Notes under the pieces: generated by a model
Database searches by the model: none
What the model saw: only the letters and a program-made list of their open reading frames with translations
Told to the model about the DNA's origin: nothing
Part shown: positions 11,084 through 63,733 of the stretch, in pieces
Layout: each line of letters starts with the position of its first letter
Position numbering within the stretch: position 1 is the first letter of the stretch
Program-made: the position numbers and the translations under genes
Assembly: GCA_905178155.1 (NCBI GenBank)
Contig: CAJINV010000004.1
Location: 4,876,619-4,940,618 of the forward strand
DNA length: 64,000 bases
DNA from: Amoebophrya sp. A120
Taxonomy: Eukaryota > Protista > Dinoflagellata
Reading direction: 5' to 3'

Positions 11084-12846
11084 TCATCCTGTCTTGTGTG
11101 TATGAAGTACCTGTCCCATAGACGTGTTGTGAAACTGCACCTCGTCTCTTACCGCTGCAAGCGGCCGCGTCGGGAGCTCCAGATCCGCTGCAACTGCTGT
11201 TTGTTGTCTTTGTCCACAAAAGGGTCGCGGTTGACGTTCGTATTTTTCTTCCTCTAGCCCCCCTTCCTGAAGATCCTGGTCCTCGTCCACTTCCGTGATC
11301 AACTTAAGGAGGAAGTTGCGTCCCTTTTTGTTGACTCCCTTCCGCGGCAGCAGAAAATTGTAGATTTTCTGCAGCTTTGCTCGCAATTTAAGATTAGAAT
11401 TAGCAAGCTGCGTTCTAGCCTCCTTTTCGCTTCGCTGGTATGACATCAAAAAGTGCATGTACAAGCAGCGATCTTCTACGAATCTTCATGACGAGTTGCA
11501 TACTTACTCCATTCGACTCTTCTCGTTCTTCTGTCGGGCCATATCATACGCATACCAAATAAAGTAGATTAAGATTTTCACTGTGCACTTTGCGTTTCCT
11601 TTTGTGGATTATATACCAAAATCAATATTTTCTATTCTGTTAGCGTTCTCACAAAAAAAAAGCATCCTCATCCAATTTGTCATGCAGTGCATGCATCAAA
11701 CCCAATGTTTGCCATGCAAAAAATTGGTAGGGATGGGCGTTGTTTCCAGAAGATACGTTTTTCCGATGCACTTTTTGTTTCTCGTGTGATATCAAAAATC
11801 GCAAGTTTTCGTGGTACCGTTGATCTAGGAGTTGCGCTTCCTGTTGTGTGGTTGTTTCTTTGTTTATGTTTGTCACGGGTCTAGCAAGAACAAGAAGACC
11901 TCGATCCCCCAATATAGTAACGATACCGTCCTGGTGGCGTTGTCATGCTAATTTTAGAAATGACATCGTGAACAAGAAGGGCAGCGTTGGGGGTGGCGCT
12001 TTCCGAACCACCAGGTTGAAGCGTTAGTTTGTCTATGTCTTAGTCTTTCATTTGGAATCGCACAATTAAAGAAAAGCAATATAACAAACTAGATGAACCA
12101 ATATAATAAATGATGTATGCACTTACGACGAGTAGTTGCTCCGAGGTCATCTTCTGCCGCCGTCGCCGAGTTAGCGCGACCAGAGTTTCATGCGCTGTCT
12201 GTGCTCTCGTACCGCGCCTAATTTGGTGCCCCTGGTAATTCTGATCTGGTGCGTTGATGTTTCCGCGGCCGCTGCGCCGATTTGCGTTAGTAGTGTTTGT
12301 GCTGCGCCGTTGTAATCTTGGCGGGAGACCTGAAGTAGGAGCACTCACGACAGTGGAAGCCGCCTCTCGCTCCATCTGCTGCGGTGCCGGCTCCCGACCA
12401 GTCGATGACGATGGCTGCGGTTGGCGGTAGCCCACCCCCACACCTGGGCCGCGGCTGTCGTTATTTTCACTTGTGGTCGTGCAGAAGGCCCTGGCCCTGC
12501 TGCTACTGCTGATCAGCGGATTCAAATTCTGGTTAGTACTCGGCGCGGCTCTTTCTCCTGACGACACTGCATGACCTGCAGCGAAAATGTTGTCCTGTGT
12601 CGTGCTAGTTGTCACTACAACAGTTTCAGTCCGCGGCACGACCGCACGTTCACGTTCTCTGGACGGCGAAGGCGAGGTTTTTTCAGAACGCGGTTTGCGA
12701 GCGAGTGAAGCAGCACGACGCTCACGCTCCGTCCTACCGTCGACAAACTCCACATCCAAGCTGTCCGAAAATAACCGTGTGGGCGTGCGCGTTGTCTGCT
12801 TCTGGACATTTTTTCCCTCTCTGATCCTGCCGGGGGAAACCGACAT
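11084..12846 (-). CDS. Hypothetical multi-exon protein
   Basis: ORF segments 12846-12040, 11912-11792 and 11464-11084. A degenerate TA-TIR element lies between the last two. Confidence 0.4.
11542..11791. mobile_element. Degenerate TA-TIR intron element (250 bp)
   Basis: Left end TATCATACGCATACCAAATAAAGT vs reverse complement of right end TATCACACGAGAAACAAAAAGT. Internal TTGTCATGC. Flanking 5-mers decayed (GGCCA/TCAAA). Confidence 0.5.
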
Positions 12847-16369: not shown

Positions 16370-18037
16370 CTGAGACGTGTTCTAGTTTGGATTGAGATGC
16401 TATGTAAGTACTAATTGAGTTGTATACCTAGCCCGTATGAACAAAAGATAATGACAATAAGAAAAACGACAACGAGGCTCCGTTTTTGCATGACCTCACA
16501 TGAACAATATTGGACGAGAGTCCAGTCTTCGCATAGTGCCTACGCATTACAGACCTCACATTCATATCAGGTCTTGTAATCTTCCAGACTCAGAGCCAGA
16601 CAGATTGGCATTTCGTAGCAGCAACGTTCCCATACAGCAATATGAATACATTGAGATTGAACTACTACACGAGCAAAAAGCGAATACTGTATTGCAGTGC
16701 GGCTCCTGCTCCGAAACGCCTGCGCAGGCTCCAGAGACTTCACTTGCTGCTTGGTCGCGTTTGATAAACTTGCGAAGCCTCTCTGTGTCGTAGCCGCCCG
16801 TTGCAAAAATTCCTGCTAACTGCTTTCGCTCTTCCCTGGCATCGGCCTTCGCCGTAACGGAGGTGAATTTTATTTTAGACAGCAGGTTCTTGTCATCGAC
16901 CTGATTGTGCAGAGTGTATGAATCAACAGGGGGTGGAAGACTGCTCGGGAAAGAGGAGAAATACACAACTGGTTACAGGAAGTAAACCTATTCCAATAAA
17001 TCGAAAACAGCAACAACTCAAACTCAAAAAGCTGCTAGAGGACATGGATGACATCAAAGCGAAAGATACAACTTAGACATACGAGTGCCCCCTCAGATGA
17101 AAGTTTATTCATGTATACCCTGGAGCAGAACTCGTCAGTAATGTTCCGGAATTCCAGTTCTTCACTTGCTTTCCGGGCGATTTCTGCTAATGTTGAACTG
17201 CCCTTTTTGGTACTGCACAACTCGAGCTCAAGTCGGCGAATTTGGTATCAACTGCAAACATGTCTCGGTCGAAACACTTGTAATACGCAATGGTCACGAT
17301 TGACGAGTCCGCGTCCGCCTTTAATTAATTGCACTGAAGCGTCTCAAATCGAAACCTTTCGATCGCTTTCTTATGCGCGGCAGCACGCGTTACAAACTGC
17401 GACTTCGCATGGTGAAAGAGAAAGTGTGGCGTTCCTTTTGCTGCTTTATGCAATACAGATTTTCCAGAAATGCAAGAAACGCCATTCTTACAGGCTCAAC
17501 CTATATTCCAGACCCAGAGATCTTTGCAGTGGATATTTGGTCCTTCAGTACCATTCGTTCGGTATCGCCGTCTTCGTTATTTCGCTCCAGCCGATGAACT
17601 TGCCGCTTTAAGTGGGTTACGTGGTTCCTGAGACCTTGGGATACCTGTAGTACTTGCTTGAAGTTAGAGTTGCCTAGGTCATAAATCGTTTTCTAATGCT
17701 CCTGCTGCAGCTGAGCGACCCACCTCTCCGTCTCGCACCTCATGCTTAAGAAGCTCAAAAAATCAAAATTCTCAAGAAAAAATAAAACGACGGCCGCCAA
17801 GAAGAAAGCGCCGGTTGTCACACTCGTTCAGGTGTCAACTAAATAATCTAAGCAAGAAGAAGATGAACAAGCTATATCATCTTACCGGTTAGAACTACTT
17901 TTTCCTTTTTCATAGCAACATCACTAGCTCGCAGCGAACAAATAGCATTGGTGTTCTTGTTTGTTTGTTTGTTTGTTTGTAGTTATGCGTCAAGGTGGGA
18001 ACGCGTTTACTCACCTTTTTTCTCTAGCACATGATCT

Positions 18038-18791
18038 TCAACTTCTATACAAAAACAATGTCAATACATGCTGCTCGGCAACTAGCTCCCTGCTCGCCTT
18101 TCGGAGGGCTCGTTTCAAGTCTTGGATTTGGTCTCTCAGCAACGTTAAAGCGGCATTGGGTTTTCCATTACTCATTGTATGGAAGTGTTAATATCGAAAT
18201 AGCCAAAACTGAAATAGTTTGTCATGTATAAAATGCAAGGCGCACGTGTATAGTGCGTGTCTTGCGAGAATGGCATCACAAGAGGCCGATTTATTTCAGC
18301 CTGCTCAGAGATCATGCACCATGAGCATGACAAAGCGGCCAATCTTCTTTGCATAAGCAGCGTGTCAGACTGGATTTTTTGGGTGGCGGCAAGATTTGTC
18401 ATGCGCCGCTTCGAAGGTAGGTTCCAACACAAGACAACTGGTATCGGCTTTAATTATGCATGACAAATGACTCATAAATATATTTTCATTTACCTTTCTT
18501 GTCTATTTCGAGCCTGAGGCGTCCATAAATCGAAGAGCATCCTAAGCCTGACACCCCGTGAACATTCAGAGTGCGGGAAACTGGTCCAGCTGCAGGAGCT
18601 CCTACTCCCGAACGGCCGTGCCTCGACATGTCTTGATGAACAGAGTCTTCTGATGCAAGTGGTGGCGCGCCAGGAGTCCGTGTCCGTGGCAACAGATCAC
18701 GACCACCAACATAGCCACATGTCGCAAAGGTCGCATCGACGGGGAGGCCCGATATTGTATGCTGTTGCCCAGCACGACCTCGCGTCCCCAT
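18038..18791 (-). CDS. Hypothetical small coiled-coil protein interrupted by a family C element
   Basis: Removing 18178-18527 + 5 nt joins GLGCSSI to SNGKPNAALTLLRDQIQDLKRAL in frame. Confidence 0.4.
18178..18527. mobile_element. TA-TIR intron element, diverged family C (350 bp)
   Basis: Ends resemble those of 42039-44375 and 61770-62083 (GAAATAGTTTGTCATGTATAAAATGC ... AAGATTTGTCATGCGCCGCTT). TSD CATTG/AATCG. Confidence 0.75.
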
Positions 18792-19902: not shown

Positions 19903-20670
19903 TTACGTCAGCGTGTTAAAGTTCGCTACCCCTACCGCCACCCCAGTCCGAGCTGCGACAAGATTGTTCATGTTCACGTCAACACGACGCTCAACTCGCA
20001 TGTTGTGATCGATTCCGTACTCCTGATTGGTGTCGTAGAAAACTGACGATTGCTGGAAAGTTTGCGCCCGCACCATTGCGCGATACCTACCATTCGATTT
20101 CGCGTACGTCTGCGTGTGCTCGTGCAGCGTCTTTTCGGGTGGGTTGTAATCCGCAAATCGCATCAGATGCTTTTGCTCCGGATTATAGGGCGGCTCGGGG
20201 TTCACGACGTAGTAGTGCGCCTCCCGCACTTCTCCGAGATATCAAAGGAAAACGGCTTACAAGGAGCGCACAAATTAAGAAATCTTGAGCTGCAAAGCTT
20301 CCTCGAGGTGACCTCCCAACAAAAAACGATATGCTGCAAGTTCTGCTCCTGTCAATATCCCACCTCAATACCTATCATAATGCATACACAGATATGCAAC
20401 TACGAGTATGTCTATGTATATGCAAATATCGTGCCTCTAGTGCCGGTCTTGCTTGATATCTGACGAATTGCACAAATCCATTGCCACCACCCGGAAAACA
20501 CGACCCTATTCACCAGCGGAATGCTGTCTTCATTCACACCTTCTGGTAGGGGCTTTGGGATGTTGAGGGGAAACTGTTTATGTGGTATCTGCGACGCGTT
20601 TCCGAACACCGACGAAAAATCTTGAAACACCTGCTGCGGCATGTTCTGCTCCAGCACGGTTCGGAAGGTC
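19903..20670 (-). CDS. Hypothetical protein (5' exon further upstream)
   Basis: ORFs 20657-20412 and 20229-19903 join in frame after removing 20240-20458 + 5 nt (WICAIRQ-REVREAHYY). Confidence 0.5.
20240..20458. mobile_element. Degenerate TA-TIR intron element (219 bp)
   Basis: TATCAAAGGAAAACGGC vs rc TATCAAGCAAGACCGGC; flanks CGAGA/TCTGA; frame restored by the +5 rule. Confidence 0.55.
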
Positions 20671-22084: not shown

Positions 22085-22773
22085 CTAATAGTGGTCGTGT
22101 TCTACAGAGATTTCACATGGCGGCGCCTGCTCGGAGTCATCTCTAAAACTTCGGTGTCCCTGTAGCTTTTCTGCATTTCAGGTTCTTCTACTTCGTATGA
22201 TAAGACATTATTTATATTGCAAAAGACGGTGAAAGTGAAAGGAGAATAAAAGGTAAACGTACTCGTTTCTCAGTATGATGTCGAGGAGGCCATCTTGTTT
22301 GTTGAATCTCTCCCAATACTCCATGATGATATCCCAGAAGCAAGCTGTGCCGCAGATGATCGCAGCGTCACTCCAATAAATCCATATCTTCCAATATCGA
22401 CATCCAAGAAGAAATAAACTATCCCCACGCAATTTGTCGCGCAAAGGAGCACTAATAGGCAGCTTCAAGGCCAATGCTAGTCAAGCAGAAAATGCATGGA
22501 AGTGGGTCGCTTCTGCTTATATGCTGAATGGGAGGCCACAATCACAAGTGGTGGCTAAGTGTGACAAGTTTCTGAGCTTCTAGCTAGGTGAGCATGACAG
22601 ACTGCGTCTCTGCATCACAGAAATAAAAGAAAACTGGGGCTTTTGGGTAACGTGCATGAGCATTACAGATTTTCTTTCACTTTAGTGTTCTGCTAGCCGA
22701 GCAGCATGACAACTCTTGCATTCTTCCAGACCCAGACATATTTGCATTTGAAGATATTTGCGGCCGCGGCCAT
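22085..22773 (-). CDS. Small single-TM protein, possibly QCR9-like cytochrome bc1 subunit (weak)
   Basis: ATG at 22773 joins ORF 22474-22208 after element removal (MAAAAK-ALKLPISAP). A hydrophobic stretch is followed by YWERFNKQDGLLDI, loosely like the WExxNKGKxxxDI end of QCR9. Probable GT-AG intron near 22262-22173. Confidence 0.35.
22478..22756. mobile_element. TA-TIR intron element, diverged family D (279 bp)
   Basis: Right end CCAGACCCAGACATATTTGCATTTGAAGATA; interior similar to 63101-63352 (TGGGTAACGTGCATGA); flanks AATGC/TTTGC; left TIR decayed. Confidence 0.7.
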
Positions 22774-23969: not shown

Positions 23970-24324
23970 TATCAAGTGCAAATATGTCTGGGTCTGGGAG
24001 ATTGGGGTAGTTTCAGTTTGTCATGCGAAATTGTACATGACAGACCCACACCACGTTGCCACCTGTAATGCATGCTAAAGAATCACACCTCTCGGAAAGG
24101 GTTGATTAATATGCCCCTCCTGCATGAGAAGTGCGCTCTTGCGGTGGCAAAAATCTAAGCGCCTGTTGCTGCTCATGCAATGCAGTTTTTTGTAGTTGAG
24201 AAGTTGCTGCTCCTGCATGAGAAGTTGCTGCTCATGCAATACAGTTTTTTGTAGCATACAAAGGTAGCACCATCACAAATCTCGTTTTTTCCTCCAGAGG
24301 ACCCAGACATATTTACAATGCATA
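23970..24324. mobile_element. TA-TIR element family D with internal duplication (355 bp)
   Basis: TATCAAGTGCAAATATGTCTGGGTC ... GACCCAGACATATTTACAATGCATA; TSD TCCGG/TCTGG; TGCTGCTCATGCAATxCAGTTTTTTGTAG occurs twice. Confidence 0.85.
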
Positions 24325-27300: not shown

Positions 27301-29923
27301 CTCAAATGATTTCGATTTTGTCGTTCCCACGATGAAGTAGATCGTTTGTCTTTACTTCCAACCAGCCCTGGTGATCTGAATCAGCTGATGCAGATAGTAT
27401 GCTCATCCAACTCTTCAGCTACTACATACATGCTGGTGCGTGAGTTTTGGTGAATAAACGGTAAGGGATAAAAATCTTGCAGCTTTTCGTGCTGTTGTCC
27501 TGCGCACCAGTGCTATCACTTAAATTTCTTCGGACTCTGTTTTAGATTTACGAAGCGGGCCGCAATATCCACAGGCGAGTTTCCTGAAAAAGAAAACCTC
27601 GTAAGCAATCTCTCCAACTTTGCAAACGTACTTGATCTGAGGTTAAGGTTCCCACTGCCCATCATTGCGCGTGCGCGGATGCCGGCGGTGCTGCTGCTGG
27701 TGGTGCCTCTATTCACATCACTGAGTGACGACGCAATGCAGCAGCCCGGTGCGTACCAGAGTCGGCGAACGCCAACTGCCTCCACTTTGTAGCAATCTAC
27801 TATAGACCTGCAACGCAGGCAATGCAAACGAAAAGCACGACGGACCCCTACCTTGTCATGATGTTACTTATATTTTGACAAGCGATCATCCATTGTGTCT
27901 TGTTTTTGTAATCTTCTTTCTTGTCTTTTCATCCCCTCGCTTGCTCGACACGCGCGCAACAGCGCCCAGGTGGGGCTGCCTGCGGATCGCATCTTATGGC
28001 CTCACCCTCTCAACACCAGCGTCTCGCTCTCATAACACATCCGGCAGGGCACCATCGCGCCCCTGCCACAAGCTAGAGTTGAGGCTTCGCTTGGGCCCTT
28101 CGCCTTTGCTCAACTTCACATCCCCAGGTCGCTCAATCGCCTTACGCTCAATGACTAAAATGCAATTAAGCTGAGCTGCGGAAGGCGCATCGACTTGGAC
28201 CTCGTTAGCTGCCGTCGCAGTGTCGCAAAATGTTCCTCTAGTGCAAGTGCTCGCCCCGCTCCTTTCTCCCCTCTTATGCCCATGCACATCGCAAGAGGAG
28301 GTACGTACGCCGGAACAAAAAGAGGCGCAGGGACCTGGATACGCGAGAAGCGAGCCGCCCCTTTGGGTCGCGGCGACGTAGTTGTCTGGCCTGGTTAGAC
28401 GTGTCCACGGAAAACATGCCTTGGGGAGTCCAGGATCATAGTGGAAAATGGGGGCCCGACTGCCCGCGCAACGACAGCGACGGAGCGGAAGGATACCCAG
28501 GGGGAGGTGGGCGAGGCCTATCCCGGCAAAGCAACGAAAGGGCCCCGGGCGTCGCCCCCCCCGCGCCGCAGTCGAGTCCGGCAAAGACATCAACCGCGCG
28601 GCCCACACGGGCCGCAGCATGTGCCTGCGCGCGCTATTCACGGGGCGCAACGGCTGCGCCACCTGTGGGGCCTAGCTTCCTGGCCCGCCGCGCTGGCTTG
28701 GCGGTGGCGCTGGCTTGGCTAGCTCGCTCCGCTGGGTGCACAAAGCACAGCCGGCAAACCACGGGGCTGCAATGCTGGCCCCGCCGCTGGCGGCCGTGGC
28801 GCGGTCAGTAAGGGCGCGCAGGCGCCGGCCGAAGCGCCGGCCGGCCGGCCGCCGGTTGCAGCACAAAAGCGGGCGGGGGGCGCGCGCGATGGGCTTGCCC
28901 CATGCGGCGCCGCGCCGCGGTGGCCTCCCAGTTGGCAGCGCCGTCCAGTGGGTCCTCACTAGTATGAGTTCGCCGCGTCCTGCTGTTCTTTCATCTCTCG
29001 CACAGTGGGAGAACGTACCTGACAGCGCACACGTCGGGGCAGACGATGCCGAAGCAGTGCCAGCGGCCTCCCGCTGCCGCTTGGTGGCCTGCTTTTCGCT
29101 CTCTCCCCAATGGCCGCCATGAAGCCGCGACCCAGGCGCAGCGCCCAACTCGTCGCCGCTGTCCGTCGACATAGTCTTCGATCTTTGTTTCTACGCAAAA
29201 GCTGAAGCTTCATGTAAAGTAAACGAAACCAGTGGCAGAATTACTTCTGGAAGGAACAACAAAGAACAAGAAGGGCAGCGATCACGTTGACTCTCCTCCC
29301 CAGGCTACGCAGGTCAATCTCGTGCTCTCAGAACTTTGTTTTCCACGAATTCGTATCAGCCGTTTGCTATTCAAAATTCCCACCAAAGATCACGTCGCGA
29401 CATCACATGCACATACTAATAGGGAAATTCATGAGAGTGACGCTTTTGAATAGGGAGGCTGCGTAGACGTTGAATAGTGTGGCGAGGAATTAACGCTCGG
29501 GCTACGCCAACCTGGCTAAACTTTCACGAATCAACAAACAAATCAAGTTCCTTTTTTCGTGCAGAACCTGCACTCACTCTTGTTGATGGTAGACGAGGGG
29601 GCACTTTTGGTTCGATACCTCAGGATGCACGAGCACGTCAAGCTCAAACAAGAACAACACACTTGTTAAGTAGTGCTTGTACTTACAGCGTTCTTCCAAT
29701 CGTGTTGAAAAAGACCACCAAGAAGAACGGCCGAACGAAGGAGGAAGCACGAGCTCAGCTCTCGCCCGAAATGCATTCCACGTAAAAATGACCTGCGAGT
29801 GCAGCTCTGAAATGGGAATGGTGGCGTAAAAATGAAACTCTCGTGTGTATCGATGTCTTGCAGCCAAAAAAATCTGTCGAAGTTTCTTCATTGTGTTGAA
29901 TCAATTGTGCTGGACTCTTTCCT

Positions 29924-32900: not shown

Positions 32901-33122
32901 ACGGGACATTTTTGCCGATCGACGCTGGAGCCATTTTTTGTTGTCCTTGCAAGAAGAAGGCCCCCGTGAGGGAGAGCTTGACTCTCCCCAGCACTCGGTC
33001 ATGGTCGAATACGTTCTCGGTGGCAGGACCGAATGACTCAAAAATGGATGATGAACAGATTTGGGGCTGCTTTTCAACACGTTCAAGATTTTTCGGGAAT
33101 GCCTATCTATCGATCTACGCAA
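29924..33122 (-). CDS. trxB: Fusion protein: N-terminal extension + thioredoxin domain (CGFC) + low-MW NADPH thioredoxin reductase (CAAC)
   Basis: IIGAGPAGLAAALYAARAG, VENYP, IFATGA, ISSCAACDG, VIGGGDTAMEEA, HRRDAF, FVAIGHQPNT and FAAGDVADPVYRQAITSAGSG. GT-AG introns 31930..31738, ~31066..30916 and 30693..30566 keep the frame. Start codon uncertain. Confidence 0.88.
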
Positions 33123-41819: not shown

Positions 41820-41972
41820 TAAGCGTGTAAAGGTAAACGCTGTTCCTGGATCGATGCCAGCTCTGCTGCTTTTTATTTTTTCACTAGCTTAATCTGCACC
41901 ACAAATTTCATAAGCAAAATTCCTCATCCGAGCATTATTCCAGTACACTTACACGATCTACCATGCAGCTTG

Positions 41973-45266: not shown

Positions 45267-45588
45267 TATACAAATAAACGTTTCCGGGTTTTGTTCAATT
45301 TTACAAATCAGCGCCCTAATCTACGAGCGAAATCAAATAAACAATCAACCGAGTCAGGCGATGCCTTTTCAGACGAACAAAACCTCAGCGATGCCTCGGA
45401 ATACCCGCCGAAGTATCGCAGATTGATTTTGCAGGAGCTCGCTGGCCTTTCAACAGACAAAACTTGTCTGGCAAGAAATCGGGCAGCTTCTTCGGTTCAT
45501 GGGGCTCGCTTTTTTGTAAAATTCAGACTTAGGATGACAATTTTGGATCCTCTCAGACCCAGACACTTTCGCCTTGATGCTGGTACAC

Positions 45589-45649
45589 GAGAGCCGGAGT
45601 CTAGCTCCTTTTCGAATTCAATTCGCAAAGGAGCTAGACTCCGACTCTC
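45589..45649. repeat. Near-perfect hairpin (30-bp arms, 1-nt loop)
   Basis: GAGAGCCGGAGTCTAGCTCCTTTTCGAATT-C-AATTCGCAAAGGAGCTAGACTCCGACTCTC. Confidence 0.85.
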
Positions 45650-45699
45650 CCAGGTTTTTGGGATTTTCGTGTCATCACATTTCGGCCAAAATGACCGCT

Positions 45700-45890
45700 T
45701 CCGGGTTTGCGCCGGATTTGTCCCGGGTTTGCAAATATTTTGTAAATATTTTGCAAACATTTTGCTATTTCCTGACAGCTAGCGCCGACCTGTAATGGTC
45801 GATATCTTAGCGCCGAAAAAGCACCCGAAAAAGTCGGGCGCTTTGCAAAATATTTGCAAAATATTTTGCAAATCCGAAGCAAACCCGGGA
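45700..45890. repeat. Inverted-repeat block of TTTGCAAAATA-type units
   Basis: TCCCGGGTTTGCAAATATTTTGTAAATATTTTGCAAA ... TTTGCAAAATATTTGCAAAATATTTTGCAAATCCGAAGCAAACCCGGGA. Confidence 0.7.
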
Positions 45891-46204
45891 GCGATCTTGC
45901 GTTCGCTTTCTCGCTCCTCTGTAGCATTCACGCAAAGAATTGGCTTCTATAAATCTGAGCTGTGGAAAGCGCGCAGCACCATCGTGAAACATTTTCAACG
46001 ATGTGCGTTCCACGGGCGCACTGGCACTACGCAGTCGACCTTACTAGTGGTTTGCTGTGGAGGTAGATTCTAAATGAGGACGAGATAGAGCAGAGAAGGG
46101 CGGTCGCTGATGGAGACCCCACCTAACACAAGGGGGATGAAAAGAGGCAGGAAAAGTAGGCCCCCATGGGAAAAAGGTTCCCCCATGCAGTGCAGGAAGG
46201 GCAC

Positions 46205-47458
46205 CTATACTAAGGGGTGCTGAAAAGCATACCTCCTAAGGGCTGTTTTGTGGTGCTTGTGTTTTCTTTCACTTTGTAAAACTGCACAAAACCCGGAAAT
46301 ACAAAGATGCATAATGGTTTTTATAAACGTCCTGAAAACACGACGCAAGAACTTCAAGTTCTTGCGTCGTGTTCTTCTTGGCCATTTATTTTGTACTTGC
46401 TTCATTATCGCCAACAGCATGCATCTTTCTCGTTCTCCTTCTCCATGTAGAACAGTGGATCTTCTAGCTATCAAAAACAATAACAAATTAAATTCTTCTA
46501 CCTCTTCAGAGTGCAGCGTGAATTTCCTTCCCATCGGCAGGTCCTTGATTTGTTCTTGGAGCAACGCTTTTTTGATTTTCTCCGGTAAGTAGGAGAAGAA
46601 GCAGAGCTTGTCCAAAAAATGCGCACAGTGTCGTGGAATCAAATGGTCGTCTGCGCTTTTCGTGGAGGAAGCCATGGGGGACGCGAGGGGAATGGGTTCC
46701 GTACTAGCTAAACCATCTTCATTGCCATCAGCGAGACTGAGATCATCCGGACCTGTAGCACCATCTTCTGTTGCCGCTGCAGCTCTTGATGCTGTGGGAG
46801 CACAAGCAGGGTTCTTGTTCCGTTCCTCCGGTACAACGACCTCAACATCGTCGTTGGCGGATCCGAGCAGTTGTGCCATGATGTCCGCGTCGGAGAGAAA
46901 GTAGAAGTTGCTCTGACTCCGCCGTGCCACTTGGTCGGTGCCGGCGCCTGGGGACTCCTGGTCGTCGACAACTTCTTCAGCGGTATTCTTGCTGATTTTT
47001 CCGTCATCCTCTGCGCCAGCGTCGCCCTGTTCTTGTTGTATACCAACATGACCTCCCGTAGAAGAAGTTATGCCGGTCACTATTGATGCGTTCTCTTTCT
47101 CCTCGTCCGCCGCTGTCAAAGCGTGCATGGCGTCCACGCGCTCTGTTATTCGGTCGAACACCGCACGGATTTTTGGCACCGGATCCCCCTGAAAACCCGT
47201 GGAGGACGCGGACGATTTGCTAGGGCCGCTTGCTCCTGCATTTTTAGCACCATTTCTCTCCTTCTGCTGGTGCTCAAAGCCGGTCGACGCTGTCGTGGGC
47301 GACGTTGCAGCTGGAGCTCCGCCACCACGTGCTGCAACGGCGAGTGCACTGTCGGGGGTCTCGCCTGCTGTGGCGGCTGCTTCAGTCTTCGTGCCTATTT
47401 CGCCCTCGGCACGCTGGAACCGCTCCTCTTCATCCTCAAGCTTGAGCAGGAAATCCAT
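46205..47458 (-). CDS. Hypothetical protein
   Basis: 417-aa ORF; acidic disordered N-half and helical C-half. Confidence 0.5.
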   Translation of the reverse strand: MDFLLKLEDEEERFQRAEGEIGTKTEAAATAGETPDSALAVAARGGGAPAATSPTTASTGFEHQQKERNGAKNAGASGPSKSSASSTGFQGDPVPKIRAVFDRITERVDAMHALTAADEEKENASIVTGITSSTGGHVGIQQEQGDAGAEDDGKISKNTAEEVVDDQESPGAGTDQVARRSQSNFYFLSDADIMAQLLGSANDDVEVVVPEERNKNPACAPTASRAAAATEDGATGPDDLSLADGNEDGLASTEPIPLASPMASSTKSADDHLIPRHCAHFLDKLCFFSYLPEKIKKALLQEQIKDLPMGRKFTLHSEEVEEFNLLLFLIARRSTVLHGEGERERCMLLAIMKQVQNKWPRRTRRKNLKFLRRVFRTFIKTIMHLCISGFCAVLQSERKHKHHKTALRRYAFQHPLV

Positions 47459-48973: not shown

Positions 48974-50043
48974 AGTTTTCCTTTTCTTTAGATTTCGGTT
49001 TGTTTTGTAGTTGGTGCTTGATGAACTTGTCCTCGCACTCAACTAGGAAAAATTCATTTGCAACAACCCACCGGACTCGAGTTCATCTCACCCAGCGACC
49101 ACGTTTTGGTATCGTACCTGCGCACAACATCAACCTCAAGCTATCTCACTTTCGTTCAGCTGTCGTACTGTGCGGTAAAGTTGTACTCCTCAATGGAAGA
49201 GTATCGCGCTTTCTTTGCTGCCGAAGAACAGCAACACGGAGCCAACCAGCACTACCTTGGACAATCATGGTTTTGTCAACCACAACCTTCCTCGAGATTG
49301 CCCTTTGCAGTTCGTTTCTTGTGGTCACGCGACACGCTTTTTTATCTTTTTGTGGGAGTGCTCTGCGACTGCCACGCAGGCACATTCCTCCGTGCATCGA
49401 GGCTTCCTAATGTGGAAATCGATTTGCTGCAACAAATTTCCACGCGGTCAACAGCAGCGAGAGGACTATTCTTTTACGTGTGAAACTTGACAAGCGTCTC
49501 AACATTTAAACATGGAGTCTATCTTCATTTTTGATACAAAAACGCTGAATCAAATCGGGTCACGCTGAGACTCTTGCTTCATTTCAAACTCAGAGGTGAT
49601 ACCACGTCCACATAGTGAAAAGCAAAAAACGCGTACAGAGGCTTTACTTTCTTTTGATGGTAGTCCTCGACTCAAATAGCACAGCACTCGAGTTCTTTTC
49701 CGAGAAAAGCTGGCATCTTTCTGTTGCGACAGAAGCATCAGAAGAAGCCGCTATGATGAAATTGCAAAACCTACCTCTAGAAGTTTGGCCCAGATGTGTT
49801 CTGTAGCCATCGTCGTGTTCAAAAATCGTAAGAAGATATGATAGGGTAAAGTAATCGCTTAGATGCGGAATTTAGTGTACATACTGAAAATTATGCGTTC
49901 TTCTAAAGAGTGTGCAAGAATCTAAAATTTTTCCGATTTTTAGGTGGTAGATCTAGGAATAGAAACACCACTTGTGGTTGTCCTCTCCAGTTGCTTTATT
50001 TTCGACGACCAGCCCCTTTCGGACCTCCGCCTCCATGTTCCTC

Positions 50044-53196
<3,153 letters not shown>

Positions 53197-53854
53197 GTTT
53201 TTTCTTGTGCGGCCAATGAATGAACTTTGACTTTATTCAGTTTGATGGTTTACAACACTCTAAAATAAACAAATGCCTTCTGCGCAGGCAGGTCTTACTC
53301 GTATGACAGTAATTCAATTAAATGCGTACTTATGCAGGAGGAAACTCCGGGCGAGCTGCTTCTTTAAAAAAAACGAGCAAGAAAGCACGACTTTTCTGAG
53401 CCAGGATCAGAAGAAGAATGACTACACCCTGGCGGCATCAGAACCACGAGTGAACAAGTGGCCGTGAAGATGACACAGACACACGCGTCGGTGTGACGCG
53501 TTTACAAGGCGATCCAAGCAAGTCGTGGGCCAGAATGCTCAATGAGTTGTTTCTTGGAACCGGACGAAATCTAAAGAATGGGTCGTGTTCAAATCATACA
53601 AAGATATGTCGACAGCAAGTAAGTTCGCTGTATTCTACGTCGAATGAGCGCGACTCAAAATTCGTCGCGATATTTTCCATTTGCTTGTGCCTTTGAAGCC
53701 GTCGAATGAGCGCGATTTTCGCGTGATTAAACAAAAATACGGCTTTCAACCTAGCATATAATTCAAGAACTCGTAATAGAACTCGCTAAGGAAAAATGTC
53801 GTTGCCATACTCAACGAAAGAGCTTCGTCAAACTAAAGTATCTTCTCTGTCACT

Positions 53855-55594: not shown

Positions 55595-56575
55595 CAGAAA
55601 TGATTACAGTAAAATTTAGCCGATACATACCAACATTTGTACGCAGAAAAAGAGTTCTGCGACTCTAACTCTTGTAAAAAGCGGTGCTCGTGCTGATATG
55701 TTGCCCCGTTTGTTCCACCACATCTAACTGCGCACACTCGTCTTAAATTCTGCTTACGTATTCTTATACTTGTTGACCACCTGCCACTGCCTCTTGATCT
55801 GGAATAATGTCTACACGAACCACTCCAACTCGAACTTAAAATGGAACGAAAGATCATCACAGGTTGCGCCCAACATGAATCCTGATCATGCCGATGTTGA
55901 CGAAGTTATTGCGTACCTATGTAATATTACTTAACGAGATCTCTATCTTTTCGACATTCACGACATTGCTTGCCAGAAAATACTTTCGAAGAAAAGACTT
56001 CTTCCGCCCCCACAGCCAATGTAACAAATTGCATATCTTCACTTTGTTCAAACCCTTCTACATTGTAAATCATCTCGTCCACATAGTAGTTCATCATTCA
56101 CGGACGGTCTTGTCGTTATCATATACATACGATGCACAAGAACATCACATCATTTACTTTAGTACTAGCAGGTAGTGCTGCCTGCATACGAATTAGTTTT
56201 TCTTGTTTGAGCTTAGAATAAACCTAGTGTTAGCGACACTGACAAAGAGTTTGATCAGAAAAATAAGAATTATGATACATCAGATACAAACAGAAACAAT
56301 CTCACGTTTCGAAGATGCTGATACTGATAGATACATACTGAAGCAGATAAATCTGTAGTTGTACTAGCATGGCGACAAGCGGCACTATCGGACCGACCAT
56401 TCAAGTAGTAGAATTCTAATGCGTTTTCCAACCTAAAAACTAAGTTAATATTCAAATTCTCGTGCGTATTTGTAAAATATACCGCTGCAAGAAATCTCAA
56501 ATCAGTGCGATGGATTTTTCCGTTCTTGCGTCACGTGCTACGTGACGCAAGTGGTGATAAAGTTAAATGCAAAAC

Positions 56576-59500
56576 TTACTTCTGTACTATAGTCTCCTCC
56601 ACTTCTTGTTGTGCCTCCACCTTCCTGTTTTTCGGTTTTATTGAGAGGAAAAATCCCCCCTCCCCATATCGAAAAGGTATGTTTGCAAAAATTTGTGTTG
56701 CGGATTTGAGGTCACAAATCACATTTGTCTTGCAAGAAGGCAAACCCAAAGAATCCGCTGCCTTAAGGAGGCGATTTGTAATGCTGTTTCACCTACATGG
56801 CAGGCCTCTCTTATGCCAAGAGCCTACAACAAAACACCCCTACGCAGGCTGAGGCTTTGCCTGTAGTGCCTCTGTGCAATACAAAGCTGATTTGTGGTCA
56901 CAAATCAGCATCACAAATTTCCGTTCTGATATGGGGAGGGGGGATTTTTCATTCTGATAGGTTTTGCGGCCACAACATAGCGAAACCCCTGGTCGCCGAG
57001 GAACACCGTGTGGAACACGGCCGCTGTTCCCGGTACGACGAACATCAGGACTGTAAATACCTGCCCTATCCAAGTGAAGAACATACAACTCCCCGCCCTC
57101 GTGGTCGTCCCTCTCGTTCTTGGTTTGTCATGATACAAAATGCGGCCTAATATTCTTTACGCATTGCGTTGCCTCTTGGCACTGTTTGCATGACAAGATC
57201 TAGCAGGAGCAGCTCGGACTACGACTACAGCAGGTACTACACTCCTGTCCAGTAGATTTCTTCTCGTCATGGTGCAAAGCCTGTATTTTTGCAGCTGTCG
57301 CGTACTGTACTAGTACAACTTAGTGTTATATTTTATTTTTAATTGCTGTTCATACAATAGTACAAATGAAGGGGAACATCAAGGGGAGCTGTAATTTTTG
57401 CACTTTCATATGCCCCCAGACGGCGACATTGAGCAGAGTCGAGAGGGAAAGCACGACGGTCGAGAGGCATGTCAGTTTGCGAAATGCGCACGCGGTGAAA
57501 GTAGGACTTTCATTTTTGAGGCCGCTGGTGTTGTGCTCCACTTCTTCTTTGTGTTCTCGCAACTGGTTTTTTTCGTCCTGCTGTTCCGCCTCCGAAGCGG
57601 AAGAAGCGCTGGTGGAAGGAAGCATCGTGCTCCGATTGTCGTAGAAGTCCTTGGCCGCCGCGAGCTGCTCTCCGACGTACGGCGCAGCGCCGGCCGGAGA
57701 TGCAGGCGGCAGCGCGAGGAGGACAGGAGGCCCTGCGAGTACCGGGTTGTGGTGCCGATCCAGTACGATCCGCGTCTCCATGTGGTCGACGAACTCGAGC
57801 TCAACACCGCCGCAGCAGAACAAATAGCCCCATGGATGACCGGAGAAACTAGCACACGATGACGATGAGTGTTCTACTTCATCTTCCCCAGCATCAGCTC
57901 GCTCTGTTCCGCCTCGCTGCTCTACTGCTGTACTACGTCGATCTTGTCCCATCATGTTCTTGCCGCTCGATTTATTACTTTCCACATTGTTGTTCTTCCC
58001 GGTGGTTGACGCGCTGGTGCCGACGTTATCAGCGACTTCTTTCGTCTGTTGTAGTTCTTCTCCCGCCGCCGATTTTAAAATTCCCTGGTGCAGCTGCTTT
58101 TGTTCTAGTTGCCAGACAGGAAAGGCTTTGCCCTCTTTCGTATTTTTCAACGCGTACACGAGCAAGGACACGTAGCACATGGTGATGAGGACAAAGGTGA
58201 AACCCAACGCAAGCGAAGTAATCGTACCAAGTGCAAAAGTATCGTACTCGTAGTAATTGCTATCGTGCATGACAAATATCTCTTTTTAGGTGAAATAGCA
58301 CTACGAGTTGCATTTTTGTTCTTGAAAAAATTTGTGATGCAATTTATACTAGTACGATACTTTTGCAATGCATAAAGCGGCAACACTTGCAACAACAGCG
58401 GCAGACCGCAAGTGTGAAGAAACGCGACGGCGCCGGGAACCATGCCCATCAGAATGCACAGGCCGAGGAGCATGTCCATAACCAGCCTGTCCCACGCGAT
58501 TCGAATCAGGAGCAGGTGGGTGAGGACAGAAGTCTTGAACAGTTGCCAGCTGCTGGTCGTCGATGAAACAACACCCGGTGGTCGCACGGTGGGCGACTTT
58601 CTGGACGTCGAGGACAGCAACATGCGAAGTTGCCACCCCGCTAATCGTAGCTGGTTCAGGACCAAAAAGCTCACTTCCCCGATGCCCTGCAGGTGCCGCC
58701 GCGATTGCGTGTACCGTGCCGCTACGTTCGCAAAGTACGCACTCATCCGGGAGGACGAAGTAGATCCTTCGCTCTCCACGATAAAACTAGCAAACGGTAG
58801 GTAAATCGCGACGACTTTGAAGGCCGGCAGGGGAAACCGCAACATTGTGGGATCGTTATTGTAGCAGAGAGCTGCAGATGTTGAGGAGGAAGAAGCTACA
58901 ACTCCTGCGGAAGCTGCAACAGGAGCACGACGTCCACCTGGCGCAGGGGCACCAACAACTCCTCCGCAATGCTGTATGAGGGCGGAGGATTCATCTTGTT
59001 CATCAGGGTTGTTCACCAGATGATGATCCACCTGATGTTGGTGCTCATGATCTTCAGGATCGCCAGGAGCTTCTACTTCGAGCGACGTAGACGTATGTAG
59101 CCCCTGGAGGTTCCACAGTTCGCGGGTATGGCACTCTCAAACGTTACATTCTCAGCTGTTTTTACACGATTAGACGTGCAAAATGACCATGAGCCACCAG
59201 ACGAAGATCAAGCTGCTTCGCGTGACAAATTATCAAAGGGCCAAACAGTATCTAAATCCTCTGTGCCAAATTTATATATGATGCAAGCTCATTTCTTGCA
59301 AGCTTGCCCCTTTCATCCGTACTGCTCCTTTAGCGTCACAAATCCACGTAACAGTTGAGAATGTAACAATTGAGAACGCCATAGCGGGTGAGCATGCCTT
59401 GCAGAAAAGTGTGGAGGTCCTCGGAGATGACGTCGGGAGCAAAGCCGCCCATCCGCTCGACAAGTCGATGCGTCGCGGTGTAGGATATGAAAGCCTCACC

Positions 59501-62500
59501 AGGTTGGAAATCCTCAAAGTGGAAATAATTTGTAATGCAAAAAACGACTCCAGGTAAAGCGGCATTTGTAGTCCGCGCATGACAAATTTCCCGGGCACTT
59601 CTTAAAGCATGTCTGTCATGCAGGTTAAGGCAAGGGGGTGCCCTTCTGTCGTGCTAAGCAGCACTCCAATTCTTCACCCCTGGCAGGACAATAGTCGGCC
59701 TCCGTTGCGTCCTCTGCAATACAGTCTTTTTTGCGTCGCATTTCATGCATCACAAATCATTTCCACTTTGAGGATTTCCATTGTTCTGAGGCTTTCATAT
59801 AGGAGCTCATCAGCGGTCGAGCGGAGGGGGAGACCAGACCGAGCTTGTAGCGCTCGTACATCCTATCACAGGAAAAAGTGTTAACGTTAACGGTTTTCAC
59901 AGATTGCAGTCATGCATCACAAATGTAGCCCAATATGCATGCTATGCATGACAAATTCTGACACGTCTTGTGATGCATTTCAGCATCACAAATTCCGTTA
60001 ACGTTAACACTTTTTGTTGTGATACATCCAAGCGCCTGCCGCGCCGACCTTGCTCAAGCCGGGGACGCGGTCCCAGTTGCGCAGCGGCTCCTGCACCGCT
60101 TGCCAAAACCTCCACGCACGGTCTGAGGCCGGCTCCTGCAGTGCCTGAAACGTCACGCAGGGAAAGTACTGCCGATGAAACAGCGTGTCAGCGTCGCAGT
60201 TGGTAATGAAAGTGCGGTCCGGGTGCCACCGCAGTAAGCTACAAGAACTTGTTGGAGAAGTTTGTTCGTTTTCAGCTGCACCAGGACCGGATGATGGTGC
60301 TCCATCGCTTCCATACGTGGAGGAGACGCTGTTCGTTATTTTTGTTCTAATTGTATTACTCCAAGTTGTTCGATGCCAATGTTGATTAAATTTCTCTCTC
60401 TCTTTATTTCCGCTGCAGCAACTTTTGTTCAGTACAAGCTAATCATTGTTCTCAAGAACATCAACAAGCAGTAGGGAACGCCTGCTTGTCGTGCAGCTTT
60501 TTGTTAGAAATAGATACTCGATCATGAAGCTATCCACGCTTTCATCGCGCATAAAATAAAATCATCGAAGCATCTAACTATTATCATTTCATTTCAAACA
60601 GATTCCAATTAGTACCTGCTGCCATTGTTCAAGTTCATCATGGTCCTCGTCTTCCCAAACTGCCCCTTCTCCTCACGACCGGGCAGCAGCTTTTCACATT
60701 GCGTTGGATCGTTCAGAAAACGCTGCAGTTCTAGCCACGCTGCCTGCAATATGACAGTGCACAACTCCCCCTTCCCCCCATTTGTGATGCAAAGCCTTGG
60801 TCCGGTCCCATGTGGCACTGTTTGCATGACAACTTTCGGAAGCCCAAACAGTACTACATTCGGCTCGTGAAGAACTTGTCATGCATAGGATCCAAATGCG
60901 TTGATGTTTGTATTGCTGCTCATGCCATGCAAGTGAGGGGGAGGGGGACTTGTGCACTCTCATATGCACATTTGAACTCTTGCCGGCCACCTCGCCGGGA
61001 AATTGGTTCTCTTTGTGGTAGCTGAGAATAATCTTCGCGAACTGGTGGCCGTGTCTGCCTTTTAGCCTTTCCGCTTTTTCGACTGCAGCCGGGCCTTCGC
61101 GCTCCTCCATGGCCAGCACGAGCACCATGGGGAGAGCTACAACTGGATGGTGTAGTGCTTCGATTTGGTGGTCATCGTCGCATGGGAGCTGCTGGCTTTC
61201 GTTTTCATCTTGTTGTTCCGGATTTTTTTCTTGTAGTTTCTTGCTCATCGTCCCGGCGGTGAAGTGATTTTTGTCCAGGTCCTCGCTCATCTGCTGACTC
61301 TTGATGTCGTATGCAATGCAAAAGCATCGTACTAGTATGAATTGCATTACAAATTGGCTTCGCATTACAAATTGAGTTTGTAATGCGGATTTGCCCTAAC
61401 AAAAAGATTTGTAATGCATAAATGCCATTAGTACGAGTACGATACTTTTGCAGTTCATATGTCGTGCTTCAACACCAAGTTGTTAATCGTGTCGGATACT
61501 AGGTCGCAGTCTTCCTTGTAACAGGGGATGATCACCGCATGCAGCGTATGCAATACAAATTTCCCGTACATGTACAAGATGCATCACAAATTTCACGAAT
61601 TTTGAGCGTCAAACTTGTCATGCGAAACTAGAAGCGAAGCCAAGTTTTGTCATGCGGAGACCGCATTTGATGTACGTGTACGGGAAATTTACTGTGGATA
61701 CAGCAGTCCGTCTTGCAATGCCTTCCTCTCTTTGCTGGAGTGCACAAATTCTCCCAGTTTGCGTTCCCATATGACACCCTCAGAATGGAAATCCTCAAAG
61801 CGGAAATAATTTGTGATGCATGAAATGCGACACCAAGAAGACCGTATTGCAGAGAACGCAATGGAGGCCGACTATTGTGCTTCTATGGGTTCAGAATTGG
61901 ACTGCTGATTAGCATGAGAGAAGGGCACCCCTTTGCCTAACTAGCACGACACCAGACACGTTCTGAATGACCGGGAAATTTGTCATGCGCCGCTTAGAAA
62001 TGGCGCTTCAACTGGAGTCGTTTTTTTGCATTACAAATTATTTCGATTTCCACTTTGAGGATTTCCATTCTGAGGCTGTCATATCCCAGTCGACTTTCAG
62101 CCACGCGTCCATCTTATCAAATGCAATTATGTCTGTGTCTGGAAGGTTGCAACTTGTGATGCTATGTTTCGACTCTAAAAAGATTTGTATTGCATGACCA
62201 GCAAGGGGAGCCCAGTTTTTGCTACGTGGGGAGGGCATTTGTCATGCGGAGCAGGCATCAGGAAGCCTTCTAAAAATCTGTGATGCTATGTCCCGCATTC
62301 CAGACCTCATGGGTCATGGCAACCCTGCGTGACAAACTTGTATTCTTCCAGACCCAGACATATTTGCATTTGATACATCTTCCACAAGCACATCGCCGCG
62401 CCAACAGAAATATCAAATGCAAAAATGTCTGGGTCTGGAAGATTCGGGGAGTTTGTCATGCACAACTGTACATGACCCAAAATGCCTGTGATGCATGCTG

Positions 62501-63733
62501 TAGCATCACAGTTCTCGCAAAGCCTTGGTAATGCCTATTCTGCATGAGAAATGCCCTCTCCGAGTGGCAAAAATTCAAGCAGCTTTTGCTGCTCATGCAA
62601 TACAGATTTTTCTATCGTCTACAGGTAGCATCACAAATCCCATTCTTTCCAGACCCAGACATTTTTGCAATCCATACGTGATCGTCGAAAGCATAAAGAC
62701 CACAAAGAACTGACAGGGTAAAATGGCATACTCGAACCACAACCGGGGAAACGCGTCGAATTGGTAGGTGAGGAGGTGTATCAAGTGTAAAAATGTTTGG
62801 GTCTGGAAGAGTGCAGACTTGTCATGCACATTTTCCATGACCCATGAGGTCTGGAGTGCGGGACCTAGCACGACACATTCTGTGAGGCCTCTACCATGCC
62901 TATCCTGCATGAGAAACCGCCTCCCAACTTGGTCAAAAGTGAACAGCTTTTGGCACTCATGCAACACAGATTTTTGCATGCTTCAGATTTACCATGACAA
63001 GTTGCCACCTTCCAGACCCAGACATTTTTGCAATGCATAAGGTAGATGCCGAGGTAGGTCAACACGAAGATCAAATACACGCAGAGCGGAACGGTCCGGG
63101 TATCAAATGCAAATGTGTCTGGGTCTGGAAACTTGTGATGCTGGGTGGCGTATCATGAGGAGGCAACAAGTGCTGGTGCAGCATGACAAGTTTCAGAGCT
63201 TCCAGGTGTTGCCTATTCAGCATGACAAACCACGTTTCTGCATGGCAGAAAAGTGAGGCTCTTGGGTAACGTGCATGACAGATTTAAGAGTCATGCCAGA
63301 CAAGCATGACAAACATGCATTCTGCCAGACCCAGACATTTTTGCAGTTGATACCGGGCAAGCAATGCCAACGTCGTTCCGGAGGAGACGGATTGGGGAGA
63401 GAGAAGTTCTTGTCCTTGATGTAGCTGTGGTTGGTGACCAACTGCATGATGTTGAGCGTGGTCATAGTACTCAACATGTTGCTTGAGCTTGCTCTCCTGC
63501 ACCACGCCTGCAGTTGATGTACTACTTTGTGGGGGCGTGGACGTCGCATAGAAGTCCGCCTTCGACGTTGTGCCCTGGCTGCGACGCCGGAGGTCCACCT
63601 TCGACGTTGTGCCCTGTTTCATCTTCTGTTGGGATGGTCGTGAAGAACTTTGCAGCTGCCAGAAGTGCGTCGACGTATTTTCAATGCGACTGCGAGGACG
63701 AGCGGTAGGAACTACGGCAGGCACAGGGCGCAA
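56576..63733 (-). CDS. Membrane glycosyltransferase family 2 protein, split by 14 TA-TIR elements and one GT-AG intron
   Basis: Reconstructed frame contains HAVIIPCYKED, LAMEERE, PGEVAGKSSN, TNCDADT (DxD), VISEDLH (catalytic ED), ARYTQSRRH (QxxRW-like), TM helices at both ends and YVVAAKP near the C-terminus. Start uncertain. Confidence 0.85.
56639..56959. mobile_element. TA-TIR intron element (321 bp)
   Basis: TSD GGTTT; TIR core GAAAAATCCCCCCTCCCCATATC; restores VAAKP-KNRKVE. Confidence 0.92.
57067..57410. mobile_element. TA-TIR intron element, family H-like (344 bp)
   Basis: TSD TGCCC; shares TGGCACTGTTTGCATGACAA with 60750-60964; restores AVWGQ-VFTVLM. Confidence 0.85.
58225..58374. mobile_element. 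TA-TIR intron element family B, reverse orientation (150 bp)
   Basis: TGCAAAAGTATCGTACT TIR; TSD AATCG/AAGCG; restores QVLP(L/I)-TSLALG. Confidence 0.9.
59127..59383. mobile_element. TA-TIR intron element family F (257 bp)
   Basis: TSD GCGGG; restores GMLTR-ELWNLQ. Confidence 0.92.
59486..59799. mobile_element. TA-TIR intron element family C (314 bp), reverse orientation
   Basis: TSD TAGGA; TIR core TGGAAATCCTCAAAGTGGAAAT; restores LMSSY-TATHRL. Confidence 0.93.
59864..60024. mobile_element. TA-TIR intron element family G (161 bp)
   Basis: TSD CATCC; TIR TATCACAxxAAAAAGTGTTAACGTTAACGG; restores GAWM-YERYK. Confidence 0.93.
60750..60964. mobile_element. TA-TIR intron element family H (215 bp)
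   Basis: TSD TGCAA/TGCAC; TIR TATGAxAGTGCACAAxTCCCCCT; restores GKSSNVQ-AAWLEL. Confidence 0.92.
61310..61459. mobile_element. TA-TIR intron element family B (150 bp)
   Basis: TSD TGTCG; restores VLKHD-IKSQQ. Confidence 0.93.
61547..61700. mobile_element. TA-TIR intron element family A (154 bp)
   Basis: TSD CAGCG/CAGCA; homolog of 34239-34389; restores DGLL-HAVIIPCYKE. Confidence 0.92.
61770..62083. mobile_element. TA-TIR intron element family C (314 bp)
   Basis: TSD TCCCA; restores KVDWE-RKLGEF. Confidence 0.93.
62115..62375. mobile_element. TA-TIR intron element family D (261 bp)
   Basis: TSD CATCT; TIR TATCAAATGCAAxTATGTCTGxGTCTGGAAG; restores CLWKM-DAWLK. Confidence 0.93.
62411..62676. 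mobile_element. TA-TIR intron element family D (266 bp), TSD decayed
   Basis: Clear family D TIRs; flanks AGAAA/CGTGA; the +5 rule restores MLSTI(S/T)VGAAM. Confidence 0.88.
62779..63039. mobile_element. TA-TIR intron element family D (261 bp), opposite orientation to 62115-62375
   Basis: TSD AGGTG/AGGTA; restores LGIYL-LTYQF. Confidence 0.92.
63101..63352. mobile_element. TA-TIR intron element family D (252 bp)
   Basis: TSD CCGGG; restores LLAR-TVPLCV. Confidence 0.93.

Follow-up and report, generated by a model that had tools for sequence, protein, structure and literature searches.

Hairpin-ended introner elements of Amoebophrya sp. A120 and the probable register of their removal from RNA

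How can short insertions with TA..TA inverted-repeat ends be lost from protein-coding RNA when their borders offer no GT-AG? The question is posed by a 64,000-nt window of the Amoebophrya sp. A120 genome (contig CAJINV010000004.1, positions 4,876,619–4,940,618, forward strand; coordinates below count from the first base of this window), in which 29 such elements lie. Their identity as Amoebophrya introner elements is close to certain, their removal at the RNA level is very likely, each as the element plus 5 nt (+5 below), and the cuts in all probability lie 1 nt ahead of the first TA and 4 nt beyond the last (the −1/+4 register). The removal mechanism of this element class is described as open (PMC7789003, PMC11282704).

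The elements and their absence from RNA

A strict scan of the window, with a 5-nt repeat around TA..TA and at least 11 of 14 complementary terminal bases as criteria, gave nine matches, whereas 30 local dinucleotide shuffles each gave none; further elements were found by tolerant scans, self-comparison and protein mapping. Twenty-eight of the elements lie within 11439–63352 and one at 8619, and they fall into five families with several copies each, besides some ten elements present once, which fits the count of at least seven families given in an earlier note on this DNA. They are 124–420 nt long, with the single exception of a 2,337-nt element (42039–44375), and make up about 10% of the window. 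The flanking 5-nt repeat is perfect in 15 cases, carries one mismatch in nine and is largely lost, with three to five mismatches, in five; the 14 repeats named earlier are all present, but the 5-bp grammar that had been ascribed to every insertion is intact only in those 15. Among 11 additional weak candidates, three restore the frame at +5 and eight were rejected as elements. All examined host genes are on the minus strand. In the following list, F1 to F5 are family labels, the two copies of the flanking repeat are separated by a slash, and the RNA-type contig is that of run X3 described below.

56576–63622, minus strand: host gene of a 1089-aa membrane protein, with 14 elements and one GT-AG intron (identical to P0001; RNA-type contig)
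63101–63352, minus: F1 element, CCCGG/CCCGG (strict scan, RNA-type contig)
62779–63039, minus: F1 element, TACCT/CACCT, upstream letter retained at position 1 (P0001)
62411–62676, minus: F1 element, decayed repeat TCACG/TTTCT, +5 nonetheless, at least three upstream letters retained (contig, P0001)
62115–62375, minus: F1 element, opposite in orientation to 62411 and 62779, AGATG/AGATG (strict scan)
61770–62083, minus: F3 element, TGGGA/TGGGA (strict scan)
61547–61700, minus: F4 element, TGCTG/CGCTG (tolerant scan, P0001)
61310–61459, minus: F2 element, CGACA/CGACA (strict scan)
60750–60964, minus: element, GTGCA/TTGCA, 220 nt skipped, junction directly in the contig (RNA-type contig)
60329–60615, minus: the canonical GT-AG intron of this element-bearing transcript (RNA-type contig)
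59864–60024, minus: element, GGATG/GGATG (strict scan, contig)
59486–59799, minus: F3 element, opposite in orientation to 61770 (85% inner identity), TCCTA/TCCTA (strict scan)
59127–59383, minus: F5 element, CCCGC/CCCGC (strict scan, self-comparison)
58225–58374, minus: F2 element, CGCTT/CGATT, 155 nt skipped, junction directly in the contig, ends GTA instead of ATA (contig)
57067–57410, minus: element, GGGCA/GGGCA (strict scan, contig)
56639–56959, minus: element, AAACC/AAACC (strict scan, contig)
50893–51139, minus: papain-type protease gene, candidate element, ACATT/ACCTG (from the frame only)
50239–50392, minus: F2 element in the C-terminal part of the protease, CTGGA/CTGGA (strict scan; removal by frame evidence only)
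42039–44375, minus: F3 element that carries 2.0 kb of inserted sequence (about 42097–44108), AGCGA/AGCGA; the annotation removes 2327 nt, not 2342
41797–41992, minus: F2-like element, TGATC/TGACC, with TT at the end in place of TA; removal of 201 nt (annotated protein)
40618–40763, minus: F2 element, GCCAC/GCCAC, 151 nt removed (annotated protein)
40238–40551, minus: element, TCAAG/CCTGG, 319 nt removed (annotated protein)
40003–40160, minus: F2-like element, GATCG/GACCG, 163 nt removed (annotated protein)
39682–39927, minus: F5 element, GCAGA/GCGGA, into which the annotated protein reads
34921–35044, minus: element in the metacaspase gene, CGGAA/CGGAA (frame and motif evidence only)
34239–34389, minus: F4 element in the metacaspase gene, AGCAG/AGCAG (frame evidence only)
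33935–34130, minus: element in the metacaspase gene, TCGCA/CCGCA (frame evidence only)
30928–31100, minus: old element within the thioredoxin/thioredoxin-reductase gene, TCTGC/CCTCT; removal of 178 nt, which fits only the −1/+4 register
23970–24324, minus: F1 element, CCAGA/CCGGA (tolerant scan)
20240–20458, minus: candidate old element (frame restored, +5 only)
17246–17535, minus: element with F1-type ends, CCAAA/CCAAA (strict scan; frame restored at +5)
11439–11791, minus: old element, TTTGA/CCAGC, 358 nt removed (annotated protein)
8619–9038, minus: old element without repeat (CAGGA/TGCTG), beyond the range covered by the earlier note; removal of 425 nt, which fits only the −1/+4 register (annotated protein)
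5392–5574, minus: candidate old element (frame restored, +5 only)

The gene at 56576–63622 carries the fullest record of removal. One contig of run X3 (record 9) spans 56028–63886 in pieces, with no other letters, and skips 155 nt at a 150-nt element, 220 nt at a 215-nt element and the 287-nt GT-AG intron, while the remaining 12 elements, if lost at +5, predict sums identical to its unlisted stretches of 102, 154 and 356 nt. Its span of 4,082 nt is the predicted length, and all 13 positions tested agree, one of these having been derived from its neighbour. Removal is read directly from this contig at two junctions only, those of 58225 and 60750, and by exact sums for 12 elements, the exact register being taken from the annotation. 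This one transcript has introns of both kinds, canonical and non-canonical, as the earlier note had expected of a process running alongside canonical splicing.

The annotated proteins extend this picture. The spliced model of the same gene is identical to P0001 over 1089 of 1089 residues, and P0005, P0006 and P0007 map to the window letter for letter in segments, covering nine more elements: seven are removed at +5, the removal at 42039–44375 is 15 nt short and 39682 is read into. The four proteins thereby follow the predicted loss of element plus 5 nt at 21 of 23 elements. Because the A120 annotation was built from aligned transcripts (PMC7789003, section 25), they constitute indirect RNA evidence. 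Retention of any one of the 14 elements would break the frame of the 56576–63622 gene, as had been foreseen for most insertions (13 shift it and one adds stops, the last costing few residues). Only with the elements removed is its frame of 1089 codons open, and 7 of the 70 positions of its repeats differ between the copies; in simulation, the chance that such a frame contains no stop is 0.002 at 5% substitution and 0.09 at 2%, and a dead gene is an unlikely reading. Frame tests fix the removal length only modulo 3, so that +2 and +8 are open too. For the metacaspase (Pfam C14) and the protease (Pfam C1), the evidence of removal comes from frames only: deletion of element plus 5 nt restores the metacaspase motif (MPEGVSLTCIIDACHSG) and the C-terminal frame of the protease, both of which the earlier note had reported. 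Same-length alternatives with GT-AG, GC-AG or GA-AG ends within 40 nt, available for 9 of the 14 elements, were rejected as they would alter the protein matching P0001, except for a GA-AG at 59864. The glycosyltransferase-2 label first given to this gene gained no support from Pfam, in which P0001 matched no family; by its motifs the product is a putative glycosyltransferase-2-like protein.

One element had been placed at 11542, which is an inner TA; the annotated protein fits 11439–11791 instead. The interval 11435–11545 has a double reading, either the annotated removal of 358 nt or an element that stops at 11542, then a small exon in frame and a GT-AG intron of 73 nt, and alternative splicing is possible there.

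Register of the cuts

Where the two copies of the repeat differ, the product reveals the number of upstream letters retained. Ten junctions are informative in this respect: at least one letter is kept in three, at least three in five and exactly four in two (8619 and 30928). For 30928, the residue expected from each possible cut was set down beforehand, and the annotated protein has the Val of the four-letter outcome; the AT5.2 ortholog has Ile opposite it. The two exactly-four junctions imply that the intron includes 1 nt upstream of the first TA and 4 nt downstream of the last, a register thus read in the annotation at two junctions and compatible with the eight others. The same two junctions exclude a cut exactly at the TA ends, which, contrary to the earlier proposal, are probably not the cut sites.

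In the −1/+4 register the intron ends read NT..NN (AT-CT, CT-TC, GT-TC and others), and none of the 29 has the GT or GC donor and AG acceptor of U2-type introns. Sliding the junction through the 14 intact repeats likewise never gives GT-AG or GC-AG, as had been noted, and yields one GA-AG (59864) and one AT-AC (61310). U at +2 and a purine at +3 are present in 29 of 29, the elements having been selected for a TA start. The U12 donor consensus is RTATCCTT; only some ends here read RTATCC, and a +1 purine bias is not replicated. Indeed, a purine at +1 in 22 of 29 window elements (p 0.014, post hoc) did not recur outside the window, where a pyrimidine in both orientations was found in 22 of 97 copies against 24 expected, and where the frame-oriented copies gave 13 of 24. 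The minor spliceosome is moreover reported absent in A120 (PMC7789003), and by end sequence the elements are canonical introns of neither the U2 nor the U12 type. Table S4 of the same paper lists the nine commonest non-canonical pairs each for strains A120 and A25, with T at +2 in 18 of 18 and varied 3' ends. We found no statement of a −1/+4 register with U at +2 in the literature searched, outside which lay figures 3 and S19–S25 of Farhat et al. 2021, which could bear on it. Among the canonical donors of the window, six of seven begin with GTA. The seven canonical introns inspected, such as 60329–60615 and 11841–12126, have A/C-rich 3' ends with no pyrimidine tract.

Removal does without several features that might be thought to guide it. 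A set orientation is dispensable, and the 56576–63622 gene holds members of the same family in both orientations (59486 and 61770; 62115 versus 62411 and 62779; 58225 and 61310). The direct repeat is also dispensable, as far as the annotated proteins show: the elements with three to five repeat mismatches (62411, 40238, 30928, 11439 and 8619) still leave at +5. Even an exact terminal TA can be missing, as in 41797, which ends in TT and is removed with 201 nt.

Transposon anatomy and relation to known introners

In the 25 elements compared, both arms consist of TAT, C or G, about six variable bases and AAA; among 116 partner arms from copies outside the window, mismatches are frequent at positions 4, 5 and 7. 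An internal 10-mer is common to the elements, 24 of the 29 carrying it and 52 of its 65 copies in the window lying inside them. The predicted folding has z ≤ −2 in 22 of 25, and the summed contig depth over the elements is very high in run X1, as befits repeated families. Decayed element fragments with no recognisable paired ends lie at 16544–16613, 18178–18467 and 22544–22753, and a 50-nt TA..TA stretch with a TTCGC repeat at 3986–4035 resembles a local tandem duplication and belongs to no family.

One family motif occurs at no fewer than 142 loci in another public record set, in which 148 pattern starts gave 123 copies with a partner end and 116 past a length and repeat filter. The 5-bp repeat is perfect in 97 of the 123, and flank identity is 0.93 at 5 nt versus 0.24–0.30 at all other lengths between 2 and 10; the targets show no preference. 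A stop-free frame is absent from 97 of the 116, which are in this sense non-coding. Terminal inverted repeats, a target duplication of fixed length, lack of coding capacity and multiple copies are the hallmarks of MITEs (miniature inverted-repeat transposable elements), and the repeat statistics together with the arms give the elements the anatomy of non-autonomous DNA transposons, from which they appear to originate. The 5-bp direct repeat is an insertion scar from transposition. Six frames tested from the 2.3-kb element gave no Pfam match, and no transposase was seen in the window. Open frames in the 116 outside copies did not discriminate between removal lengths, and a strand classifier applied to outside copies (49 of 79 correct) was too weak to orient the mismatch positions.

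The 2.0-kb insert nested in the F3 element (42097–44108) contains two tandem repeat blocks (about 42257–42500 and 43540–43911), with no Pfam match and no copy among the fetched loci. A different TA..TA inverted repeat, with 51-nt arms that are 80% complementary and no direct repeat, occupies 45257–46323 inside a 1,280-nt GT-AG intron of the P0005 gene; the same intron holds a decayed F1 piece at 45511–45572.

The element class is already published: Farhat et al. 2021 (PMC7789003) describe introner elements among the non-canonical introns of A120, with 29,850 repeated introns, and Gozashti et al. 2025 (PMC12130899) report 58 A120 introner families. The −1/+4 register and the dispensability of repeat and orientation are added here. 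The link to Amoebophrya introners drawn in the earlier note is borne out by every defining feature tested, namely inverted ends of TAT, 7 nt and AAA (25 elements and 116 arms, compared with PMC7789003), a direct repeat at the borders (3–5 nt in print with a 5-bp example in the Fig. S19 legend, 5 nt here), genes mixing canonical and non-canonical introns, RNA-supported removal off GT-AG, repeated families, and a host that is this strain or a near-identical one, the matching proteins bearing the name Amoebophrya sp. A120. Passages in print differ in giving the splice position as variable or unknown, with no clear dinucleotide signature, whereas a single register with U at +2 is likely here.

Other lineages offer partial parallels. 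The nonconventional introns of Euglena share the lack of GT-AG, a terminal stem, a longer 3' overhang and a likely MITE origin (PMC12501133, PMC11282704), but their signature N3CDG..CHG N5-6, followed by R after the cut, is not that of the elements here, which read N-TAT..ATA-N4 in an unrelated lineage; circles have been demonstrated there (PMC11282704). Introns of Fritillaria borealis are similarly transposon-derived, with inverted repeats and target duplications, and mostly off GT-AG (PMC13326754, PMC11282704); they differ in their limited sets of ends (AG-AC, AG-AT), with U1 present and a divergent U2AF, whereas the first and last bases here look free. The introners of Micromonas, Aureococcus, Symbiodinium and Polarella are also non-autonomous DNA transposons that lose one repeat copy (PMC9860276, PMC11282704), but they carry or co-opt GT-AG or GC-AG. 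In contrast, junction sliding in the outside copies of the present family gives GT-AG at about the chance rate (11 of 232 orientation cases, about nine expected). The elements resemble, finally, MITEs of integrase-like transposons with 5-bp target duplications in being short and non-coding, with inverted ends and a subterminal 10-mer, and differ in that no transposase was seen in the window. An A120 family with terminal inverted repeats and Copia-like open reading frames has been reported (PMC12130899).

Candidate machineries and further observations

We favour a modified U2-type spliceosome that takes its guidance from the predicted hairpin, an explanation that as a whole has an even chance of being right; the spliceosome as catalyst is marginally the better bet. 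Whichever end comes first, the symmetric TAT/ATA ends would place a donor-like U+2 A+3 U+4 there; the hairpin would join the intron ends in place of U1/U2AF bridging. The donor would be read as N-U-A-U, its first base being free, and the acceptor would be set by a distance of 4 nt past the stem instead of by AG, the branch A possibly lying within the terminal ATA. Given the donor-like U+2 and A+3, such a spliceosome is favoured at least as much as a second machine. U2, U4, U5 and U6 are reported for A120, U1 being found in neither strain, and the elements of A25 begin with TTA and two purines (PMC7789003), which at the sequence level would resemble GTAAG with an altered first base. In tunicates, a spliceosome that processes mostly non-canonical introns provides a precedent (PMC13326754, PMC11282704). 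Candidate branch A residues are present at −7 and −5 in most elements and are not separable from the symmetry of the inverted repeat. On balance, a unified code N/N-U-A...stem...A-U-A-N4/N (slashes marking the cuts) appears probable for the introns of Amoebophrya, in which a U1-less spliceosome or a new machine would recognise no more than U+2 A+3 and a hairpin and would count four bases to the 3' cut.

Several points weigh against this picture. Run X3 is RNA by the guess of a tool, and it may share data with the annotation; the register draws its support from two annotated junctions, the raw RNA runs X9 and X10 having no exon depth, and 2 of the 23 annotated elements are exceptions to +5 (2327 rather than 2342 nt removed at 42039–44375, and read-through at 39682). 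The motif preference of an aligner may inflate some rows of the published Table S4. The terminal register is poorly paired in the predicted fold of about nine of 25 elements, and no branch A is invariant, 58225 having G at −7 and 41797 T at −5. A stable stem across both ends would be expected to mask spliceosomal signals, and the free bases at +1, −2 and −1 go beyond the tunicate case. In Euglena, hybrid ends are rare and the authors favour a separate machine (PMC12501133).

A separate, non-spliceosomal machine (an endonuclease and a ligase, or a complex such as that proposed for Euglena) might instead read the hairpin and cut at −1/+4; this is the second excision system of the earlier note with its register corrected. 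It is a substantial though less probable alternative, which would suit the orientation independence and the lack of fixed end dinucleotides, and whose geometry would recall the Euglena nonconventional introns, with a 5' overhang shorter than the 3' one (N3CDG..CHG N5-6; PMC12501133) and excision as circles (PMC11282704). The failure to detect U1 in both strains (PMC7789003) points the same way, whereas most spliceosome parts are present (same source) and U+2 A+3 fits canonical donors in two strains whose elements have different ends (TAT versus TTA); no enzyme of this kind turned up, no search having been aimed at one. Self-splicing, or an RNA polymerase that jumps the DNA hairpin by way of the repeat, could draw on the strong predicted folding and the shared internal 10-mer, concentrated as it is inside the elements (52 of 65 window copies). 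Either is very unlikely: no Rfam match, and hence no group I or II fold, was found at gathering score; it speaks against a ribozyme fold that lengths start at 124 nt, that interiors are unrelated and that both orientations occur; and a polymerase jump requires the repeat, which several removed elements do not have.

TA-bounded inverted-repeat elements resemble the internal eliminated sequences of ciliates, and on that model excision could take place from DNA in the transcribing life stage, so that RNA never carries the elements. The contigs establish presence rather than absence, and the joint table of run X1 is swamped by repeats, both of which leave room for such excision. It is nevertheless hardly likely, since X1, which behaves as DNA, has element–flank junctions at depth 42–48 versus 39–40 for unique flanks, precise removal where the repeat is lacking and with four of five upstream letters retained would be unexpected of a transposase, and we know of no germline/soma split in the group of Amoebophrya. 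The junctions might also come from reverse-transcriptase template switching across repeat-flanked hairpins, the genes being dead or unspliced. Such switching is a documented class of artefact (PMC2923612), and the RNA evidence is presumably all based on cDNA. This explanation is highly improbable in view of the same +5 at junctions with a decayed or absent repeat, of a 1089-codon frame open only after removal despite the 7 of 70 repeat differences, and of the spliced residue at 30928, which agrees with the AT5.2 ortholog.

A fixed register would turn variable borders into a testable code, specifying the bases to mutate, the branch site and the annotation of tens of thousands of introns, and it would explain how coding sequence can be invaded by transposons without penalty. 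Were the code true, any TA-ended transposon would be a traceless intron, in either orientation and at any target. If the spliceosome reads it, that spliceosome works with neither G+1, AG nor U1; if a separate machine does, a second nuclear splicing route would have arisen in convergence with Euglena.

Some further features of the window were recorded. At 61770–61883, run X9 has 586 raw RNA reads from a paralogous family copy elsewhere, which run past the terminal TA into another flank; 247 X9 reads end at 61883 in adaptor-like letters, presumably those of the template-switch adaptor. An RNA may start inside an element, with one arm only, and stay unspliced. The first 304 nt form an array of a GC-rich 47–49-nt unit, with an inverted copy at 252–304. 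GC-rich blocks (58–62% over a background of 46–50%) at 28000–29200 and 36300–38400, whose tested frames matched nothing in Pfam, are possibly old mobile DNA. The papain-type protease at 49990–53200 appears to cross two elements and pass into a long C-terminal extension that has no Pfam match. The gene at 29927–33002 encodes thioredoxin fused to thioredoxin reductase as one 859-aa protein, a fusion common to the AT5.2 ortholog.

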